Notes under the pieces: generated by a model
Seen by the model: only the letters and a program-made list of their open reading frames with translations
Database searches by the model: none
Told to the model about the DNA's origin: nothing
IMG/VR virus record: IMGVR_UViG_3300045000_000068
Coordinates: 1-52,377 of that record
DNA length: 52,377 nucleotides
Direction: 5' to 3' (one strand)
Source: a virus
Lineage: Duplodnaviria; Caudoviricetes
Position numbers and translations under genes: made by a program
Shown: positions 4,832 through 52,377 of the stretch, one piece after another
Layout of the letters: every line of letters begins with the position of its first letter
Position numbering within the stretch: position 1 is the first letter of the stretch

Positions 4832-4902
4832 TCCCCGTTCGTCCAATGGCAGGACTCCTGGTTCTGGACCAGGCAATCGAGGTTCGACCCCTTGACGAGG
4901 AG
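4832..4902 (+). tRNA. tRNA-Gln (anticodon CTG), no encoded CCA
   Basis: Acceptor TCCCCGT/ACGAGGA (one C-A mismatch), D arm GTCC/GGAC, anticodon arm CCTGG-TTCTGGA-CCAGG, T arm CGAGG-TTCGACC-CCTTG. Confidence 0.9.
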
Positions 4903-33825: not shown

Positions 33826-34603
33826 CGATTCCGGGGCGCGGCTACCGCAGCCGTGGGCCAGCGCGGCGGCGCAGTCTGTGTTCTTCCGCCGCGGCCAGCT
33901 CGCGATGCTGGTGGCCGCCCCCGGGGTCGGCAAGTCGGTCGTCACCACCGCGTACGTAGTCCAGTCCGGGGCCCACACGCTCTACCTGAGCATGGACACC
34001 GACGCCTACACAACGTCGGTCCGGCTGATCGCCTCGGAGCTCGGCTGCACCCTCTCGGAGGCCGAGGCCGGCCGGTCGGCGCGGGCCCCGTGGGCGCTCG
34101 AAGCGCTCGGCAAGATCCGGAACGTCCACTTCGGCTTCCCGTCGTCTCCCGACGAGCGGGAGATCGCGGAGCGGCTGCTCGCCTACCGCGAGGCCGAGGG
34201 GGAGTATCCCGAGCTCCTGATCCTGGACAACCTGAGCAACATCGCGTTCGACGACGAGGAGTTCACCGGGTTCCGCCGGCTGATGCGGGAGCTCCAGACG
34301 GTGGCGTCACGCACCGGGACCGCGATCCTCGTTCTGCACCACGCGGTCGGCGAATACGAGAACGGCGACAAGCCCATTCCGATGGGCGGCGTTTCCGGGA
34401 AGCTCTCGAAGTTCCCCGCGCTGATCCTGACCGCCTACCGGCAAGAGGGAAACGCGCTCGGCTTCTCGGTGGTGAAGAACCGTTTCGGTCCCGCGAGCCC
34501 GTCGGGAGGCGGTGTTATGTTCTCTTTGCAGGCGGACATGGAACGCGTGCAGATCCGCGACAATCCGCACCCCACACTCTGGAGACGAAACGGTGAGCAG
34601 TAA
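33791..34603 (+). CDS. DnaB/RecA-like replicative helicase
   Basis: AAPGVGKS Walker A, LILDNL, VLHH, VKNRFG. Confidence 0.85.
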   Translation: MQTPAQAARRRDDSGARLPQPWASAAAQSVFFRRGQLAMLVAAPGVGKSVVTTAYVVQSGAHTLYLSMDTDAYTTSVRLIASELGCTLSEAEAGRSARAPWALEALGKIRNVHFGFPSSPDEREIAERLLAYREAEGEYPELLILDNLSNIAFDDEEFTGFRRLMRELQTVASRTGTAILVLHHAVGEYENGDKPIPMGGVSGKLSKFPALILTAYRQEGNALGFSVVKNRFGPASPSGGGVMFSLQADMERVQIRDNPHPTLWRRNGEQ

Positions 34604-45496: not shown

Positions 45497-45537
45497 AAAA
45501 AAAGCCCCCGTCCTGCGCGATGCAGGCGGGGGCGTTT
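45497..45537. terminator. Bidirectional intrinsic terminator
   Basis: A7-GCCCCCG(T)CCTGC-loop-GCAGGCGGGGGC-GTTT at the convergence of the two arms. Confidence 0.85.
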
Positions 45538-45725
45538 GTCGTTCTCGGCCGGGTGACTCTCGGTCCGCAGCGGGCGGCCGGGTGGCACGCTCGCCGCATG
45601 CTGTACCAGCTTCGCTTGATCGTCGCGTGGTATCTGTCGCTGCCACACGGTAAGGCGCGGACGCGCCGGAGCCGAGAGGAAGGGTGAGTAACGCCCGACT
45701 CCGACGCATCCGCAAGTCTACATGA

Positions 45726-45962
45726 TCACTGCTCGTCTCCGTCCTCCGCCCCGCTGGCGAACACCGCGGTGCTGCGGATCAGGATCATCCGCGCGCGCGC
45801 GCCCTCCAGCTCGCCGCCGCGGTGCGGCGGTTCGAGCAGCACTTCACCGGCGGACGCGAGCATCCGGACCTGGCGCAGCCGCGCGTCCATCTCGATGATC
45901 GCCTGTCGCAGGCGGGCCAGCTCGGCCAGCAGCGCATTCCACTCGTGGTCGTCGACTTCCAT
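45726..45962 (-). CDS. Hypothetical coiled-coil protein
   Basis: GAAGGGTGA motif before the ATG. Confidence 0.6.
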   Translation of the reverse strand: MEVDDHEWNALLAELARLRQAIIEMDARLRQVRMLASAGEVLLEPPHRGGELEGARARMILIRSTAVFASGAEDGDEQ

Positions 45963-46046
45963 CGTCACCCTTCGCCCTCGGCTGAACGCCGGACCCCGAA
46001 CCGGAACGCTGCCGCTCCGGACCGAGGCTCACCCGTTCAGTCTGTC

Positions 46047-46187
46047 CTACTCGTGCCCGGTCGTCACCACCTGTGCCGGTGATGTCGCCGCCAGTGAGTC
46101 GTACGCCGTGCTGTCGTCGGCGCACGCGCCGACCACCAGGATGATCGTCCCGACGATCGCCGCGAGCACAAACCGCGCTGGGCTCAT
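46047..46187 (-). CDS. Small lipoprotein
   Basis: Hydrophobic signal with VGAC lipobox. Confidence 0.5.
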   Translation of the reverse strand: MSPARFVLAAIVGTIILVVGACADDSTAYDSLAATSPAQVVTTGHE

Positions 46188-46961
46188 GACTCGCCCTTGT
46201 CCGTCGGCGGCCACGTGAGGACGGCCGCGTGCTCGCCGCCCCCGGGGGTCCAGACAAGCGCCTCCTCGTCCGGGCCGCCCAGCTCGACCACCGCCACCGG
46301 CGGCGCATGCCGGCACGCGCCCTGCCGGATGGCTGCGAGCTTCGCCGCCTGGTAGCTGTCGAACTGCTCGCCGACGTGGTTGTCGCTCGTGTCGACGAGC
46401 ACCCAGCGCAGGTCGTCGCCGCTCATGACTCGCCCTCGCCGAGGCTGCCGTAGCAGTACGGCGCGCACTCCTGGCCTCGCCCCGCCCCGCAGTCGTCGCA
46501 CCCTGGCGCCGCGCTCTCGGGTTCGAGAACAACGGCCTGCCCGCCGAACCTGGCCGCGAGCATCCGGGCTCGGTTCTCGCCCAGGATCCCGGCCCGCTCG
46601 ACGTCTCCGTTGGGGTAGCGGACCCCCCACTCGCCGCCGCTCATGACTCGCTCTCGCCGCCGGTGACGTCGACATCCGCGACGAACAGCAGTCCCGGGAT
46701 CGCGTCGTCCACCTCGGACGTGACGGCCCAGATCTCCGGCCCGTCCGCGTCGAGAAACACGATGCGCCGGTGGCCCTCGCCCTCGGCGATCAGCCGCCCG
46801 ACGGTGGCGTACAGCTCGTCGAGCGTGGCACCCTGCGGCTCGCCTGCATCGGCCGCGCACATCGGACACCCGTCCTCGGCTGCGCCGAAGTGGTAGGCGT
46901 TCTGGTGCTCGGCCTCCAGTCGTTCTGTCCGTTCGGTGGCCGTCTCTTCCGTGGTCATCAT
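46184..46961 (-). CDS. Three coupled hypothetical genes (46641-46961, 46423-46644, 46184-46426)
   Basis: ATGA overlaps with the repeated junction GCGAGTCATGAGC. Confidence 0.6.
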
Positions 46962-47044
46962 CTCTCACCCTTCCCTGATCCAATCCCGGTTGAGCACCGG
47001 TGGCCCGGTCGGAACCTTGCGGCTCCGGCCGGACCGTCGTGCGC

Positions 47045-47401
47045 TCACTCCTCGTCGTCGCCGCGCGGGTCGCAGTCGCAGTCCTGCGTGATCGCGCCGC
47101 CGTGCTCGTCGCACGTGCGCCAGTCGCCGTTTTCGTCGAGCGCCGGATTCGGCGGCTCGGGGTGGGTGCCCTCGCCGCGTGCGAACGCGTCGAGCGTGGC
47201 CCGGTCGTAGTCCTCCGTGTCACCGGTTCCCCCGTCCTGCTCGGACGGGTGCGTGATCTCCAGGCCCAGTGCATCGAACGTCTGGGTCACCAGGTCGACG
47301 ACGTCCCCGCCGTTCCATCCGCCGGACGAGTCTTCGATCTCCCAGCACGCCGCCAGCAGGTCCAGCAGTGCCCGGCCCTCGCGCGTGGTCTTGTTCACCA
47401 T
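47045..47401 (-). CDS. Acidic hypothetical protein
   Basis: Start motif; WNGGDVVD. Confidence 0.65.
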   Translation of the reverse strand: MVNKTTREGRALLDLLAACWEIEDSSGGWNGGDVVDLVTQTFDALGLEITHPSEQDGGTGDTEDYDRATLDAFARGEGTHPEPPNPALDENGDWRTCDEHGGAITQDCDCDPRGDDEE

Positions 47402-47484
47402 GATCTTTCACCCTTCCTAGTTGATCTCCGGTTGAGCACCGGTGCCCGGCCAGGGACGTGCGCCCCTGGCCCAGCGTCGTGCGC

Positions 47485-48423
47485 TCACTCCGCCGCGCTC
47501 TCCAGGTCCGCGAGGACGCCGTGAGACACCTTGGTGACCAGCTCTGCGATCGCGCGCAGCGTCTCGACGTTCCCGCCGGACCAGCCGGCCACGTACGGAA
47601 CCGAGTAGCTCGACGTGTCCGCCCCGAGCGCACCCAGCACGACGTACGCCACCGACTCCGCCTCCGCCTCCATGCGGCCGCGGTGCAGGCGGTACTCGTC
47701 GAGATCCGCGACGTGATCCGCGCGGATATGCGCCAGCTCGTGCAGCGCCGTCTTGGACGCCTGCATGTTGTCGACGTCGGCGCGCACCCGAACGGTCTTG
47801 GTCTCCGGACTGGTGGTGCCGTTCGCCCCGCCGCAGTCGCCGCGCTCGAAGCTGTAGCCGTGGCCTTTGATCAGCCGCTCGAACGCGTCGAGCGTGTTGG
47901 TCACGTCCTCCCCGGTGAGCAGCGACGGGACGGCCGGATTCACCGGCAGCTCCTCGCCCTCGGTCTGCGAGAGGTCGAACACGTGCTCGATCTTGAAACC
48001 GCGCATGACCTTGATCGGCTTGTCGTCCGGGCCGTATGCCCGCTTGCCCTGCCGCGCGAAATCCTCGGCCTCGGCCTCACTCAGGCGTCGGGGGAGCGGT
48101 GCGAAAACCTGGAGTCCCCACGGTCCCTTGTGTCCCTCGGGACGCTTGAGGACCGACCGGCCGCGCTTCGCCCATGAGCCGTAGCTCGCGACCGCGGACA
48201 ACGTCATGCCGCGCTCCTGGGCCTGAGCCCAGAGCAACACCGTGTTGCCGAACGAGTAGCGGGTACCGAGTCCAGCGGTGAACCGCAGGTACGCGCCCCA
48301 CTCCTCGGAGCTTGCCAGCGACTCGACGGCGCTGTTCAGCTTGTTCTTCAACGCGTCGACCTTTGCCGCCCGCTCCTCCGGAGAGACCGTCGGACGCTTG
48401 CGCGTTGCCACCTTGCTTCCCAT
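47485..48423 (-). CDS. ArdC-like ssDNA-binding antirestriction protein with HExxH metallopeptidase-like domain
   Basis: YSFGNTVLL...SW...GR.V, VFDLSQTEG, LHELAH, EAESVAYVV, YVAGW. Confidence 0.8.
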   Translation of the reverse strand: MGSKVATRKRPTVSPEERAAKVDALKNKLNSAVESLASSEEWGAYLRFTAGLGTRYSFGNTVLLWAQAQERGMTLSAVASYGSWAKRGRSVLKRPEGHKGPWGLQVFAPLPRRLSEAEAEDFARQGKRAYGPDDKPIKVMRGFKIEHVFDLSQTEGEELPVNPAVPSLLTGEDVTNTLDAFERLIKGHGYSFERGDCGGANGTTSPETKTVRVRADVDNMQASKTALHELAHIRADHVADLDEYRLHRGRMEAEAESVAYVVLGALGADTSSYSVPYVAGWSGGNVETLRAIAELVTKVSHGVLADLESAAE

Positions 48424-48495
48424 GATCGTCACCCTTCTCTGTTGATTCTGCATCGGAGGATGCAATAGAACGCGCGTACGAGACGCGCGCTCGAT

Positions 48496-48726
48496 TCACT
48501 CTCCGCTTAGTTGACTCAGAACGACGTCACACAGCCGTGTGGCCCACGCGAGGATTTCCTCCCGGTTGCCCTCCACGGCAAGCCCCCCGCCACCCGCCCC
48601 GCCAAGGAACAGGACGTGCGTCCCGTCGATCGGCTCGTCCGGCGACAACTCGTCGTCAGCCTCGCTTGCGGTCATCAGGCGGACCTCCTGCGCCGATGCC
48701 GCAGACCACTCAACATGCATGCTCAT
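48496..48726 (-). CDS. Hypothetical protein
   Basis: Start motif. Confidence 0.6.
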   Translation of the reverse strand: MSMHVEWSAASAQEVRLMTASEADDELSPDEPIDGTHVLFLGGAGGGGLAVEGNREEILAWATRLCDVVLSQLSGE

Positions 48727-48805
48727 CGTTCTCACCCTTCTCTGTTGATTCCCGCCTGATCAGCGGCGGCCACGGCTGGTGCAAGACCAGCCGGACCGTG
48801 ATTGA

Positions 48806-48991
48806 TCAGTCCTCCTCTACTTGCAGCGTCCACGTGCCGACGCGGTGACCGTTGGCGTCACGGATGACGCGTTCGGTGCGCATGTCGTCGACATCGCCCG
48901 CGACCTCGCGTAGCAACGCTGCGACCTCGCCGAACGGGTTTTCGACGACCGCAGCGTTGCCGGTCTCAATCGTCAGATTGAGCTTGACCAT
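48806..48991 (-). CDS. Small phage protein (ETGNAA...EVA.LLR...DANG..VG pattern)
   Basis: Start motif. Confidence 0.65.
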   Translation of the reverse strand: MVKLNLTIETGNAAVVENPFGEVAALLREVAGDVDDMRTERVIRDANGHRVGTWTLQVEED

Positions 48992-49066
48992 TGCTCTCAC
49001 CCTTCCTTGGTTCCCGGTGAACACCGGCCGCGCGTGCAGGTACAAGACCTGCACGACGGTTGCTGT

Positions 49067-49659
49067 TCACTTCCGCACGCGTGCGCCGATCTCCGCCGTA
49101 GCGGTCCACAGTTCGTCAACCACGCCGTACGCCCATCGGGCCACGTCCTCGGTTGTGTTCCAGCCGCCGTTGTCCTCCTGGCCTCGCAGCGCGGAGTAGA
49201 AACGCTCTCCGTCCGCGGCCAGGAACGTAACGAGCCCGCCCAGCATCTCGACCGGCGTCGCGTTCGGACCCTTGAGCCCGCCCCCCGCGTCGAGCAGGTT
49301 GCCGTTGGCCCAGAGCTGCCAGACGTAGTGCCGCTGGTCCCCGGACGTGACCGTGTGCCGCACGTTCAGCGCGTACCGGCCGGACTCGTCCGCGTAAGCC
49401 GCGGTCCCGCGGCCGGCGATGATCAGTCCCATGACGCCACTAGGCTTCCGTCACGGTCGCTCGCGAGGCTTTCGCGCGCGTCCGCTACCAGCTCGCCGAG
49501 CGCGCGCAGCGCACGCGGAGACAGATAGAGGACGACCTCGCTGTGATCGCCGAACGAGAGTTCGACGTACGGCCTGCCGAACACGCCGGCCGGGCGCGTG
49601 CGCGCGTCGATCGGGTCGCCGTCCTCCACGTGCACACTCGTTGTGGTGCGTACTGCCAT
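49067..49659 (-). CDS. Two-gene cassette (49423-49659, 49067-49432)
   Basis: Start motif at 49665; overlapping ORFs. Confidence 0.6.
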
Positions 49660-49758
49660 TGCCCTCACCCTTCCTTGTGGTTCTGGCCGAATAGCCATCA
49701 CCCCGCACGTGCGTTCCGCACGCACATACGGGGGCAAAGCGATTCGGATAGATCGGGG

Positions 49759-50180
49759 CTAGCTGGTGCTCGGGAGCAACTCCGGATACACCCGCAACGC
49801 CGTTGCGCGTGGCGCGAGCCACACCGCGTTGAGCACGTGTTCCGGCGGGCAGTGCATGAGTCCGGCCCGGATATCGGGCGCCTGGTATCGCAGCACGGTT
49901 CCGGTCGACAGGCTTTCCGCGTCCGTGCGGATCGTTACCGGCCGGTCGCGCACCATGAGTACGTCGTCCTCGCGCGCCTCGCGCGCCCGAATGGTTTTCA
50001 CGTCGTCACCCGGCCCTTGTTCCACGCGGCCGGCAGGAAGCCACCGCGTGACAACCACTCGTCCAGCGCAGCGAAGTGCCCCGACATGAGATCCAGCGCT
50101 TCCAGCCGTTCGGCCTCCACCATGCCTTCCCGGTGTTCGACCAGCGACCTGATCAGCGACAGTGTTGCGTTCACGTCCAT
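49759..50180 (-). CDS. Two-gene cassette (49998-50180, 49759-50001)
   Basis: Start motif at 50188; GTGA overlap; LDEWLSRGGFLP.AW. Confidence 0.6.
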
Positions 50181-50270
50181 GATCTATTCACCCTTCCCTG
50201 TGGTTCTGCATCGGAGGATGCAACAGAACGGCCGGACCATTTCGGCCCGACCGCTCGATTCACGCTCCGA

Positions 50271-50756
50271 TCACCCGAAGATCAGCACCAGGTCACCCGG
50301 GTGCAACGCGTGCGGGTAGTCGCGGAAGCCGTTGTCCCGCTTGATCTTGGCTACCGTCGTGCCGTACAGCCGCGCGACCTGTGAGAGTTGCTGTCCTGGC
50401 CTCACCAGGTGGACGCGCAGCGTCGGCGCTCCTGCCCCGCCGCGTGCTGCGGCGGCCGCTGGGTTCCGTGTCCAGCTCGGGACGTACGTCCCATCCGCTA
50501 GGCGCCCGTTCGGCCACGTCGTGACCGCGCCCCGGATATATGGCAGCCGGCCCCATCCGTAATAGACGTTGTGCGCCGTGGTGTTCGGCCCGTGGCCTGG
50601 CCCGCACACCCGGTTGCCCTGGCGTGCACAGTTCCAACTCACGCTGTCTTCTCTGGGTTGGGCGTGAGCCGCCGCAACCGTGGTGAGAGACAAAGTGCCG
50701 AGCATGACCGTGGCGCCGATCAGCGCCAGCGCCACGCGCACCAATAGGTTTCGCAT
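50271..50756 (-). CDS. Secreted LysM-domain protein
   Basis: Signal peptide (AHA); WNC...GNRVCG; HLVRPGQQLSQVARLYGTTVAKIKRDN...LHPGDLVLI. Confidence 0.8.
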   Translation of the reverse strand: MRNLLVRVALALIGATVMLGTLSLTTVAAAHAQPREDSVSWNCARQGNRVCGPGHGPNTTAHNVYYGWGRLPYIRGAVTTWPNGRLADGTYVPSWTRNPAAAAARGGAGAPTLRVHLVRPGQQLSQVARLYGTTVAKIKRDNGFRDYPHALHPGDLVLIFG

Positions 50757-50842
50757 GATCCATCACCCTTCCTAGGTACCGCCGTTCCCGCCTGATCAGC
50801 GGCGGCCGCACACGGCGCTAGTCCGTGTGCCACCGTGATTGA

Positions 50843-50995
50843 TCAGTGCCGATCCTGGTCGTACCAGGCCGCGCGGTCGGTGCACGTCTCGCAGTAGCAC
50901 TCACCGCGTCTTGCGGCCGATTCGTCGTGATCGCTGTTGACTGCGGCCGCATCCTCGCGCGCCCAATCGGCGTGCGGGTCATATGCCTGTGTCAT
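50843..50995 (-). CDS. Small Cys-motif protein
   Basis: Start motif; CYCETC. Confidence 0.55.
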   Translation of the reverse strand: MTQAYDPHADWAREDAAAVNSDHDESAARRGECYCETCTDRAAWYDQDRH

Positions 50996-51077
50996 GGTGC
51001 TCACCCTTCCTAGGTTCCGTACGCGGCTAAGCGTCGGCGGCACCGGCTGGTATCGAGACCAGCCGGACCGTTGAAGC

Positions 51078-51341
51078 TCAGGGCTTGACGTGTTCGAGCA
51101 TCGTGCCGAACTTCTCCGTGTGACGGCGCAGCTCATCGCGCCCGTTGACCTCCGCCGACTCCCGATCGCCGCACTTGCCCTTTGCAAGTCGTGTCCAGCC
51201 GTAGCGCGTGAGGACCGATACCGAGTAGCGGTAGTAACCGGTCGGGCCGTGTCCGGCGAACCAATCGTCTTCCACGAGTAGCAGGAACGTCACGCCATCG
51301 CGCGTGCGCGTGAGTTGGTCTGCGACATAGCAGGTACCCAT
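51078..51341 (-). CDS. Hypothetical protein
   Basis: Start motif. Confidence 0.6.
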   Translation of the reverse strand: MGTCYVADQLTRTRDGVTFLLLVEDDWFAGHGPTGYYRYSVSVLTRYGWTRLAKGKCGDRESAEVNGRDELRRHTEKFGTMLEHVKP

Positions 51342-51426
51342 GATCGTCACCCTTCCTTGTGGTCCCGCCTGATCAGCGGCGGCACCGGCTGGTATCGAGA
51401 CCAGCCGGACCGTTAGTGATCAGCCG

Positions 51427-51675
51427 TTAGCGGGGCGTGAGCCATGCGTTGGATGCCACGAACGCGTCCCCGGTCTTCCAGCCGTACCGAGCAACCGAAC
51501 GCGAGGTGACCCGCACGGGCGTGTAGTTCGGTTCCATCGCCTGGCCCGGCCCGGTCGCGACTACCGCGAACCGGATTCCGTTGATCGCCTGGTACGTGAG
51601 CTTCTCGCCCGCCTCGTAGCGGGTGACGCTGTGTTCGCGCCCAAGGTGATCTGTGAACTCCGTTGTGTGTGCCAT
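51427..51675 (-). CDS. Hypothetical protein
   Basis: Start motif. Confidence 0.6.
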   Translation of the reverse strand: MAHTTEFTDHLGREHSVTRYEAGEKLTYQAINGIRFAVVATGPGQAMEPNYTPVRVTSRSVARYGWKTGDAFVASNAWLTPR

Positions 51676-51776
51676 GATCGTTCACCCTTCCTTGTGGATC
51701 TCCGTGCTCCGCCTGATCAGCGGCGGCGATGGCTGGTCAATGACCAGCCCCACCGTTGTTGATCAGGTTTTCATGA

Positions 51777-52019
51777 TCAGCCGGCGGACCGGGTGACCGT
51801 GACCGACAGGCCAGGGTGGACGTCGAAAGCACTTCCGTCTGACCACTCGATCAGGAACGAGTCCCCGTAGTTGTTGTCCAGCTTGCCGACGACCGTTACG
51901 TCCGAGCCTGTGTAGCTGGCGGGTACGTCAACCCAGCTCGCAAGCAACTGCTGTGCGTCGAGCGACACCGCGTCGCCGACCAGCAACTCGCGGGTTGTGA
52001 TCGTGTGTAGCGAAGTCAT
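51777..52019 (-). CDS. Hypothetical protein, first gene of the leftward array
   Basis: Variant motif GGAAGGGACA. Confidence 0.6.
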   Translation of the reverse strand: MTSLHTITTRELLVGDAVSLDAQQLLASWVDVPASYTGSDVTVVGKLDNNYGDSFLIEWSDGSAFDVHPGLSVTVTRSAG

Positions 52020-52377
52020 GGTGTGTCCCTTCCTTGGTTGGCACTCCCCGCGGCACCCGGCAACCCTGCGAACAGGACGACCGGATGCCACGGCCAATGC
52101 CAGGACCGAAGTCCAAGCACCAGTGGAAGTTGTGGTGATCCCACCCCTTGCGAGGTGGGTTGTTCTATGCGGTAAGTCGATCACCCTGGCGCTACACGGC
52201 CCCTTGTCCTACTGCCTGTCGCGGGTGCTTCCGAGAGGTTCGCTCTCGACCGGGCTACCTGAGCCATGATCGGCTCTGTATCTCCCATCCGGTGATGTTG
52301 CTACCGGGCCTGTGCCCCCGCGGGGGGAGTGATGATCGACTCTGTTGTCCGTCTCCGAGGGCTTTCCGGATCTTCCC

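Follow-up and report, generated by a model that had tools for sequence, protein, structure and literature searches.

The operon that runs leftward near one end of an uncultured, high-GC actinophage genome contains twelve copies of a repeated intercistronic RNA module, each of which can adopt two folds. The genome is that of IMG/VR virus record IMGVR_UViG_3300045000_000068, a linear stretch of 52,377 base pairs (bp) that was analysed as a whole and is called here the window. Its leftward operon extends over 45726..52019 on the minus strand, comprises 15 small genes and holds all twelve modules; all of these genes being encoded on that strand, their mRNA reads as the reverse complement of the window. 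The first fold of the module is a long interrupted stem. The second is a short local hairpin, made by that arm of the stem which lies on the side of the ribosome-binding site (RBS), together with a short tail. The two folds are both present, mutually exclusive and non-random, and their pairing is kept across families of differing sequence. We tentatively propose that the modules act post-transcriptionally, the stem being a processing site and 3′ stabiliser, one arm of which would refold into a 5′ hairpin; this is the reading that we prefer, while holding it to be somewhat short of probable.

Read along the mRNA, every spacer displays its parts in the same order: a stop codon, the long interrupted stem, an internal loop, a short tail, a CA-rich linker, an 11-nucleotide (nt) Shine–Dalgarno (SD) motif, 3–7 nt and the ATG of the next gene. 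The stem has 20–26 bp in all twelve modules and is interrupted by internal loops or bulges. It is topped by a strong GC-rich hairpin of 24–39 nt, variable in sequence, which we name the central hairpin. The 11-nt motif, found 3–7 nt before the ATG at the twelve modules, extends an 8-nt SD core of which the window has 14 occurrences (0.68 expected), 12 of them being those of the spacers. Seven families can be told apart by their sequence: A (four copies), B (two), C (two) and the single copies D, E, F and G. A common alignment is possible for families A, B, D, F and G, and in the internal loop of these nine copies an A on the 5′ side and a C on the 3′ side, forming an A·C mismatch, are invariant.

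Beyond the central hairpin the RBS-side arm can, together with the short tail, take up another structure. RNAfold predicts, as the 5′-most structure of the segment that follows the central hairpin, a local hairpin of 4–7 bp in each of the twelve modules; it starts 0–3 nt after the central hairpin and ends 3–16 nt before the SD motif. Its 5′ half and its loop coincide with the 3′ arm of the long stem, which makes the two structures mutually exclusive in all twelve. An earlier account, made from the letters alone (the sequence-only reading), had claimed that such a second hairpin is nested beside the RBS in every family. Indeed, the six types that it listed were all recovered where it had placed them, exclusive of the long stem as it had said, and a twelfth module (45978-46042) was added outside the interval 46986-51767 that it covered. 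It was also right in stating that the hairpin of families A and B starts at the A-C mismatches of the stem: the helix begins at the C within the A·C-mismatched internal loop.

The copies are positioned as follows, all on the minus strand, with z describing the stability of the long-stem fold against 200 dinucleotide shuffles of each module (−3.2 to −5.8 over the twelve). Family A has its stems at 51707..51770 (A4), 51363..51426 (A3), 50786..50849 (A2) and 48750..48812 (A1), with local hairpins at 51709-51723, 51365-51379, 50788-50802 and 48752-48766. These hairpins are present as claimed, while the pairing drawn for them had to be corrected: RNAfold gives 5 bp, including one U·G, and a loop of 5 nt. 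In the same order, the SD motifs are at 51682-51692, 51347-51357, 50763-50773 and 48732-48742, and the ATG codons at 51673-51675, 51339-51341, 50754-50756 and 48724-48726. The stop codon is 9 nt before the stem in A4 (51777-51779), 3 nt before it in A3 (a TAA, 51427-51429) and within it in A2 (50843-50845) and A1 (48806-48808); z is −5.56, −4.54, −4.02 and −3.60. Family B consists of B2 (stem 47428..47491, z −5.27) and B1 (46985..47051, z −5.18). The local hairpins of this family, at 47428-47442 and 46986-47000, have 5 bp and a 5-nt loop; they precede SD motifs at 47408-47418 and 46965-46975 and ATG codons at 47399-47401 and 46959-46961, and both stops (47485-47487 and 47045-47047) are in the stem. 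Family C, with longer local hairpins of 6–7 bp, is made of C2 (stem 50204..50273, hairpin 50206-50223, SD 50188-50198, ATG 50178-50180), where the real stop at 50271-50273 pairs with the tail, and of C1 (stem 48446..48504, hairpin 48449-48464, SD 48429-48439, ATG 48421-48423, stop 48496-48498 in the stem, z −3.39).

Four modules are single copies. Module D (stem 51015..51084, SD 51001-51011, ATG 50993-50995, stop 51078-51080 in the stem, z −3.58) forms a local hairpin of 7 bp with a bulge at 51017-51037. Module E (stem 49682..49747, SD 49665-49675, ATG 49657-49659, z −5.76) has a hairpin of 5 bp at 49684-49697 and a TAG stop at 49759-49761, 11 nt before the stem. The hairpin of module F, at 49014-49027, had been drawn with 6 bp and a 2-nt loop, which is sterically impossible; it has 5 bp and a 4-nt loop, in a module with its stem at 49012..49073, SD at 48997-49007, ATG at 48989-48991 and in-stem stop at 49067-49069 (z −4.01). 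Finally, module G, the one added to the list, has its stem at 45978..46042, its local hairpin at 45979-45991, its SD motif at 45965-45975, its ATG at 45960-45962 and a TAG stop at 46047-46049, 6 nt before the stem (z −3.23).

How far chance might account for the local hairpin was assessed by comparing the stretch that separates the central hairpin from the SD motif with 1000 mononucleotide shuffles of each. The family-median p values of these 3′ segments range from 0.008 to 0.11 and give 2.6e-5 when combined by Fisher's method over the seven families, versus 0.78 for mirrored 5′ segments of equal length, used as a control. If the alignable families are pooled as a single lineage, four independent instances are left, and a hand calculation yields a combined p of about 4e-4. 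Across the nine-copy alignment, 88.9% of the cells of the local helix are paired, compared with 13–60% in controls where the helix was slid; for the outer stem the figures are 95.2% and 22–41%. Covariation reaches 0.311 in the local helix and 0.373 in the outer stem, for a shuffled mean of 0.149 in both cases, and none of 500 shuffles attained either value, with the caveat that even unstructured sequences can outscore their shuffles if they are related. One pair of the local helix is C-G in four copies and G-C in four, both sides having changed, and three pairs of the outer stem changed on both sides. The long stem is also predicted independently by RNAalifold, with 19 pairs, 11 of which show compensatory changes. 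Module D is instructive in this respect. Its central 24-nt hairpin is identical to that of A3, yet its different outer arms still pair, and its local hairpin differs from that of A3 in both sequence and register.

The long stem is the minimum-energy fold of 11 of the 12 pieces folded alone, the twelfth (C2) having been shortened at its 5′ end. In the context of the spacer the energies of the two states differ by −4.2 to +4.4 kcal/mol. Because the local fold is a minority state in most modules at equilibrium, the local hairpin must be seen as the fold of the arm when its partner is absent or occupied, not as its resting state. As for the strand, the sense RNA is the more stable in seven modules and in total (−465.7 versus −425.3 kcal/mol), and a U·G wobble, specific to that strand, is kept in eight of the nine copies of the central stem; total stability and conserved wobble suggest that sense-strand RNA is the level at which the modules act.

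On the reading that we prefer, the long stem would be the default fold, serving as processing site and 3′ stabiliser. A double-strand-specific endonuclease, for example RNase III of the host, would cut it in or beside the internal loop. Once freed of its partner, whether by the cut or because a terminating ribosome occupies the partner arm, the RBS-side arm would close into the local hairpin, and the downstream cistron would thereby gain a 5′-proximal stem-loop ahead of a standard initiation region. The RNA level, the cut, the enzyme and the stabilising effect are what we infer. 5′ stem-loops protect mRNAs. A 5′ end made just after the central hairpin would leave the local hairpin 0–3 nt from it and 3–16 nt before the SD motif, a position which, to judge from such cases, could protect the end without blocking initiation. 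As described in the parts of PMC3867540 that we draw upon, the ideal RNase III substrate has 22 bp, about two helical turns, and loops or mismatches at the target lead to single-strand cuts that leave stabilising 3′ hairpins. The modules have the size and shape of the sites of phage T7, for which about 20–22 bp would be expected (20–26 bp, interrupted by an internal loop, in all twelve), and they have the location of such sites, in twelve spacers between genes of the same strand. The structural predictions of the cleave-and-refold switch put forward in the sequence-only reading thus held good (a stem of two turns, a conserved internal loop, a hairpin 0–3 nt past the central one), the cleavage itself being a deduction. 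The geometry is consistent with this mechanism, which is plausible, and the layout suggests built-in cutting and stabilising of the message of each gene.

Several features weigh against it. At equilibrium the local pairs have a probability of 0.58 in A1, of 0.41 in D and of no more than 0.17 in the other ten modules, where the local fold is thus minor. Each local hairpin is short, with a p value taken singly of only 0.005–0.23, and the lower stem has only 6–9 bp. Because the copies are paralogues within one contig, they provide few independent changes; no relative carrying the element was found in the sequence collections searched, and covariation rests on these paralogues. The RNase III of the host may obey rules of its own: the antideterminant base-pair rules (proximal and distal boxes), as given in the portions of the source that we use, were defined for the Escherichia coli enzyme and may not be those of the host (PMC3867540). 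Finally, the antisense strand folds better than the sense strand in five modules (A1, A3, A4, D and F), because there the A·C mismatches of the sense strand turn into G·U pairs. Either these mismatches are deliberately kept open, or a role exists for the DNA or for an antisense RNA.

The shortness of the local hairpins and their low occupancy at equilibrium are what one would expect if the long stem alone were functional, as a barrier to 3′ exonucleases, a shield against Rho or a processing site, the small hairpin being a by-product of GC-rich and partly palindromic arms. Three of the five local pairs are either invariant or vary only by breaking, the sole double change may be a single event, and the predicted accessibility of the SD motif is unaffected by the fold, all of which would fit. 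A by-product, however, would not be expected in twelve modules out of twelve and in seven sequence families, nor would it separate the 3′ segments so sharply from their mirrored 5′ counterparts, nor show a helix whose register is as specific as the slid controls indicate. Module D, keeping a hairpin of wholly different sequence and register despite the central hairpin that it has in common with A3, likewise speaks against this explanation, which we regard as possible and rather unlikely. Were it correct, the modules would be ordinary, though unusually regular, intercistronic stabilisers.

A second explanation puts the ribosome in charge. A ribosome terminating at the stop codon of the 5′ arm would melt the outer stem, and the freed arm would form the local hairpin, aiding initiation or re-initiation on the next cistron. 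The stop codons are well placed for this, being within the stem in eight modules and 3–11 nt upstream of it in the other four; the long stem brings the stop into the proximity of the SD motif, and the sole gene pairs of the operon that lack a module have overlapping start and stop codons. The sequence-only reading had offered a switch flipped by the terminating ribosome as a variant of its proposal. The positions of the stops agree with that variant, while its consequence is not seen: the predicted accessibility of SD motif and AUG averages about 0.53 in one state and about 0.52 in the other, with the 5′ arm free or blocked, and changes in no consistent direction. There is thus no support for a terminating ribosome unmasking the RBS, and RBS masking was rejected. 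Moreover, four copies (A3, A4, G and C2) use a stop other than the conserved UGA in the stem, and every gene has a strong SD motif of its own. Coupling of this kind appears improbable to us.

We give just as little credit to a third explanation, in which the repeats would mark cassette boundaries in the DNA, either as recombination substrates shuffling small genes, like the T4 cassettes described below, or as folds of single-stranded DNA, the RNA folds being secondary. It draws on the better folding of the antisense strand in five modules, on the fact that the genes between the modules are without relatives in the collections searched, and on a mosaic sharing of sub-modules between neighbouring spacers. 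Thus D and A3 have an identical central hairpin of 24 nt (51043-51066 and 51385-51408) with outer arms that differ, and A1 and C1, although members of different hairpin families, have an identical 20-nt stretch of linker and SD motif (48732-48751 and 48429-48448). Such sharing suggests recombination, gene conversion or modular exchange between copies. Yet homology for recombination does not need pairing to be kept through differing sequences, as is the case here, the conserved U·G pairs are specific to the sense strand, and no sigma-70-like promoters or U-tract terminators of the kind found in the T4 cassettes turned up, one weak terminator match aside. Exchange between copies would account for the spread of the modules, not for the upkeep of two alternative helices.

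Two further candidates can be set aside quickly. A bacterial selenocysteine insertion sequence (SECIS), or any other recoding of UGA, is ruled out by the frames in the nine modules examined, where the offset from the UGA to the next ATG is 0, 1 or 2, an in-frame stop follows within 6–123 nt in eight (F being the exception) and two of the real stops are not UGA. An operator for a single DNA-binding protein is unlikely because the sequences differ between families while the pairing is kept.

A bolder version of the proposal sees the whole operon as self-insulating. Twelve bistable RNAs would be cut in the conserved A·C loop by a double-strand-specific nuclease, each upstream message being capped at its 3′ end by the GC-rich hairpin and each downstream message capping itself with the nested hairpin formed by its new 5′ end, in front of the CA-rich linker and SD motif, so that one early transcript would give rise to individually stabilised and uniformly translated monocistronic messages. 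It would be nature's equivalent of the RNA-processing insulators that synthetic operons employ; we put it forward as a speculation that may well prove wrong. With reference to the cost of the device, actinophage genomes usually pack their genes tightly. Here some 1.1 kb out of 6 kb of operon goes into the twelve structured spacers, an outlay that points to a function under selection. Should the two-state reading be true, it describes a design by which a phage splits one transcript into separately stabilised messages, it may illuminate the start-associated sequences of cluster K mycobacteriophages, considered below, and it provides compact natural parts (stop, hairpin, 5′ hairpin and SD motif) for operons in high-GC hosts.

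The modules are best seen as a variation on known intercistronic stem-loops. The early RNAs of T7 and SP82 have RNase III sites between early genes. With the sites of T7, and of Bacillus phages of the SP82/SPO1 type, the modules have in common that they are repeated, related stem-loops of about 60 nt in the intercistronic spacers of a polycistronic phage transcript, and that two stem segments surround an internal loop, where a cut (predicted, in our case) leaves a 3′ hairpin on the upstream message. Unlike those sites, they have a conserved alternative hairpin in the RBS-side arm, a stop codon in the stem and a fixed, extended SD motif downstream, and their host would be a high-GC actinobacterium.

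In cluster K mycobacteriophages, the start-associated sequence (SAS) and its extended form (ESAS) likewise put an SD-containing motif, in a single orientation, before many starts of the non-structural arm, preceded by imperfect inverted repeats that flank a variable spacer; in the portions of the two accounts cited here their function is still unexplained (PMC3203893, PMC12699233). The SAS consensus, as part of one of them has it, is 13 nt long and lies 3–8 bp before the start codon; the twelve motifs of the modules differ from it, in a similar position 3–7 nt before the ATG (PMC12699233). The ESAS is described in the same portions as a 17-bp imperfect inverted repeat with a consensus for the cluster and a spacer of mostly 4–13 bp (PMC3203893, PMC12699233), and its authors, in the part of their text used here, see little support for hairpins in the mRNA (PMC3203893). 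By contrast, the arms of the modules flank a hairpin of 24–39 nt, belong to at least seven sequence families, covary in their pairing and contain a second, nested hairpin.

The promoter-early stem-loops (PeSL) of T4 resemble the modules in being compact regulatory cassettes, repeated among small genes of unknown function within a plastic region; they differ, from what part of their description tells, in combining a strong sigma-70-like early promoter with a terminator, while the modules have no sigma-70-like promoter site and include the SD motif in the repeat (PMC2839356). Measured by the terminator of these cassettes, the stem-loops of the modules are strong and none is followed by a U-tract, one weak terminator match lying inside the central hairpin of C2. 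Repetitive extragenic palindromic (REP) elements of enterobacteria have a role in message stability and in stalling near stop codons. They share with the Correia elements of Neisseria, and with the modules, the form of imperfect palindromes repeated within operons. Correia elements are able to bind RNase III, which may either cleave or protect them, according to the part of the source drawn on here (PMC2649163). Both kinds are dispersed repeats of host genomes, often mobile, whereas the modules belong to one phage operon only and are fused to a translation-initiation module. A limited literature search returned no description of nested two-state spacers in actinophages.

Relatives of the element were sought in several ways. 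Searches of cultured phages with the region, by megablast and blastn, gave nothing except one 50-nt coding match in Rhodococcus phage Jflix2. The exact pattern of family A had six matches in viral contigs, all in chance contexts; the SD-plus-ATG pattern had only single chance matches (about 80 listed, from at least 119 stretches), and family A plus SD had none in metagenome contigs. Protein scans found nothing with the ArdC-like gene of the operon in viral, metagenome and genome contigs, nor with its 121-residue and LysM proteins in viral contigs. Of 102 matches to the large terminase 80 were kept, and the 21 of these 80 on contigs of at least 27 kb were examined: none of the 21 has a 10-nt form of the SD motif, and a covariance model built on the nine alignable copies had its best match among them at 20.9 bits, which reads as coding sequence and is not credible. 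In the window itself the model retrieved only its nine training copies (50.8–77.5 bits), the next sense-strand match being at 16.5 bits. Rfam 15 has no family for the modules at the gathering score, its sole match in the window being a tRNA at 4832-4902. One terminase relative in IMG/VR (G018, about 61% identical) has, at about 45.2–51.0 kb, an array of very strong hairpins of −27 to −34 kcal/mol in 36-nt windows, about 300 nt apart and in some cases followed by T-runs. They are of a different, terminator-like kind, and we rejected the array as a form of the same element.

The window is about 70% GC and estimated to be 69% complete; its structural genes are of siphovirus type, and its large terminase has no more than 57.5% identity with its counterparts in cultured Streptomyces, Arthrobacter and Gordonia phages. 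Twelve gene junctions of the leftward operon are the spacers, of 71–101 nt each, and the two remaining ones (49423-49432 and 49998-50001) are overlaps of start and stop codons with neither spacer nor module, so that two ways of joining genes coexist in one operon. A scan limited to sigma-70 consensus promoters, which may miss other types, found no promoter-like site in 45500-52377, and apart from the weak match in C2 no U-tract terminator was found in the operon block. This fits a single polycistronic RNA, and the twelve genes that bear a module are probably co-transcribed. The promoter of the operon is not visible because the leader (52020-52377, minus strand) reaches the end of the contig. 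That leader is strongly structured (−152.6 kcal/mol over 358 nt, z −2.29) and matches nothing in Rfam. The first gene has a variant of the shared SD motif and no module upstream. At the other end, where the leftward operon adjoins rightward genes, the 11-nt SD motif recurs in inverted form beside a small GC hairpin (45650-45690, plus strand); this could be what is left of a module, or a terminator region working in both directions.

The tetranucleotide GATC directly precedes the ATG in six of the twelve genes that follow a module (ATG codons with lower coordinates 51673, 51339, 50754, 50178, 48421 and 47399 in the list above), and two spacers have a further GATC upstream, where pairing between the two sites could place the SD motif in a loop. 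GATC is common genome-wide, at 8.3 per kb, and therefore not informative; it was rejected as a methylation or other signal.

Pfam matches were obtained for two of the ten operon proteins tested. One, encoded at 50271-50756 on the minus strand, is a LysM protein. The other, encoded at 47485-48423 on the same strand, has an ArdC N-terminal domain (ArdC-N) together with weak metallopeptidase-like matches; its nearest relatives in cultured phages, those of Gordonia, are only 32% identical. This protein suggests an anti-restriction, early-gene role for the operon. A cysteine-rich protein of 50 residues (50843-50995, minus strand) has its C-terminal part mirrored in Rhodococcus phage Jflix2 (OQ938594.1, about 34341-34390), where the counterpart is an unannotated small reading frame between genes 48 and 49 that looks like a small gene missed in that record.

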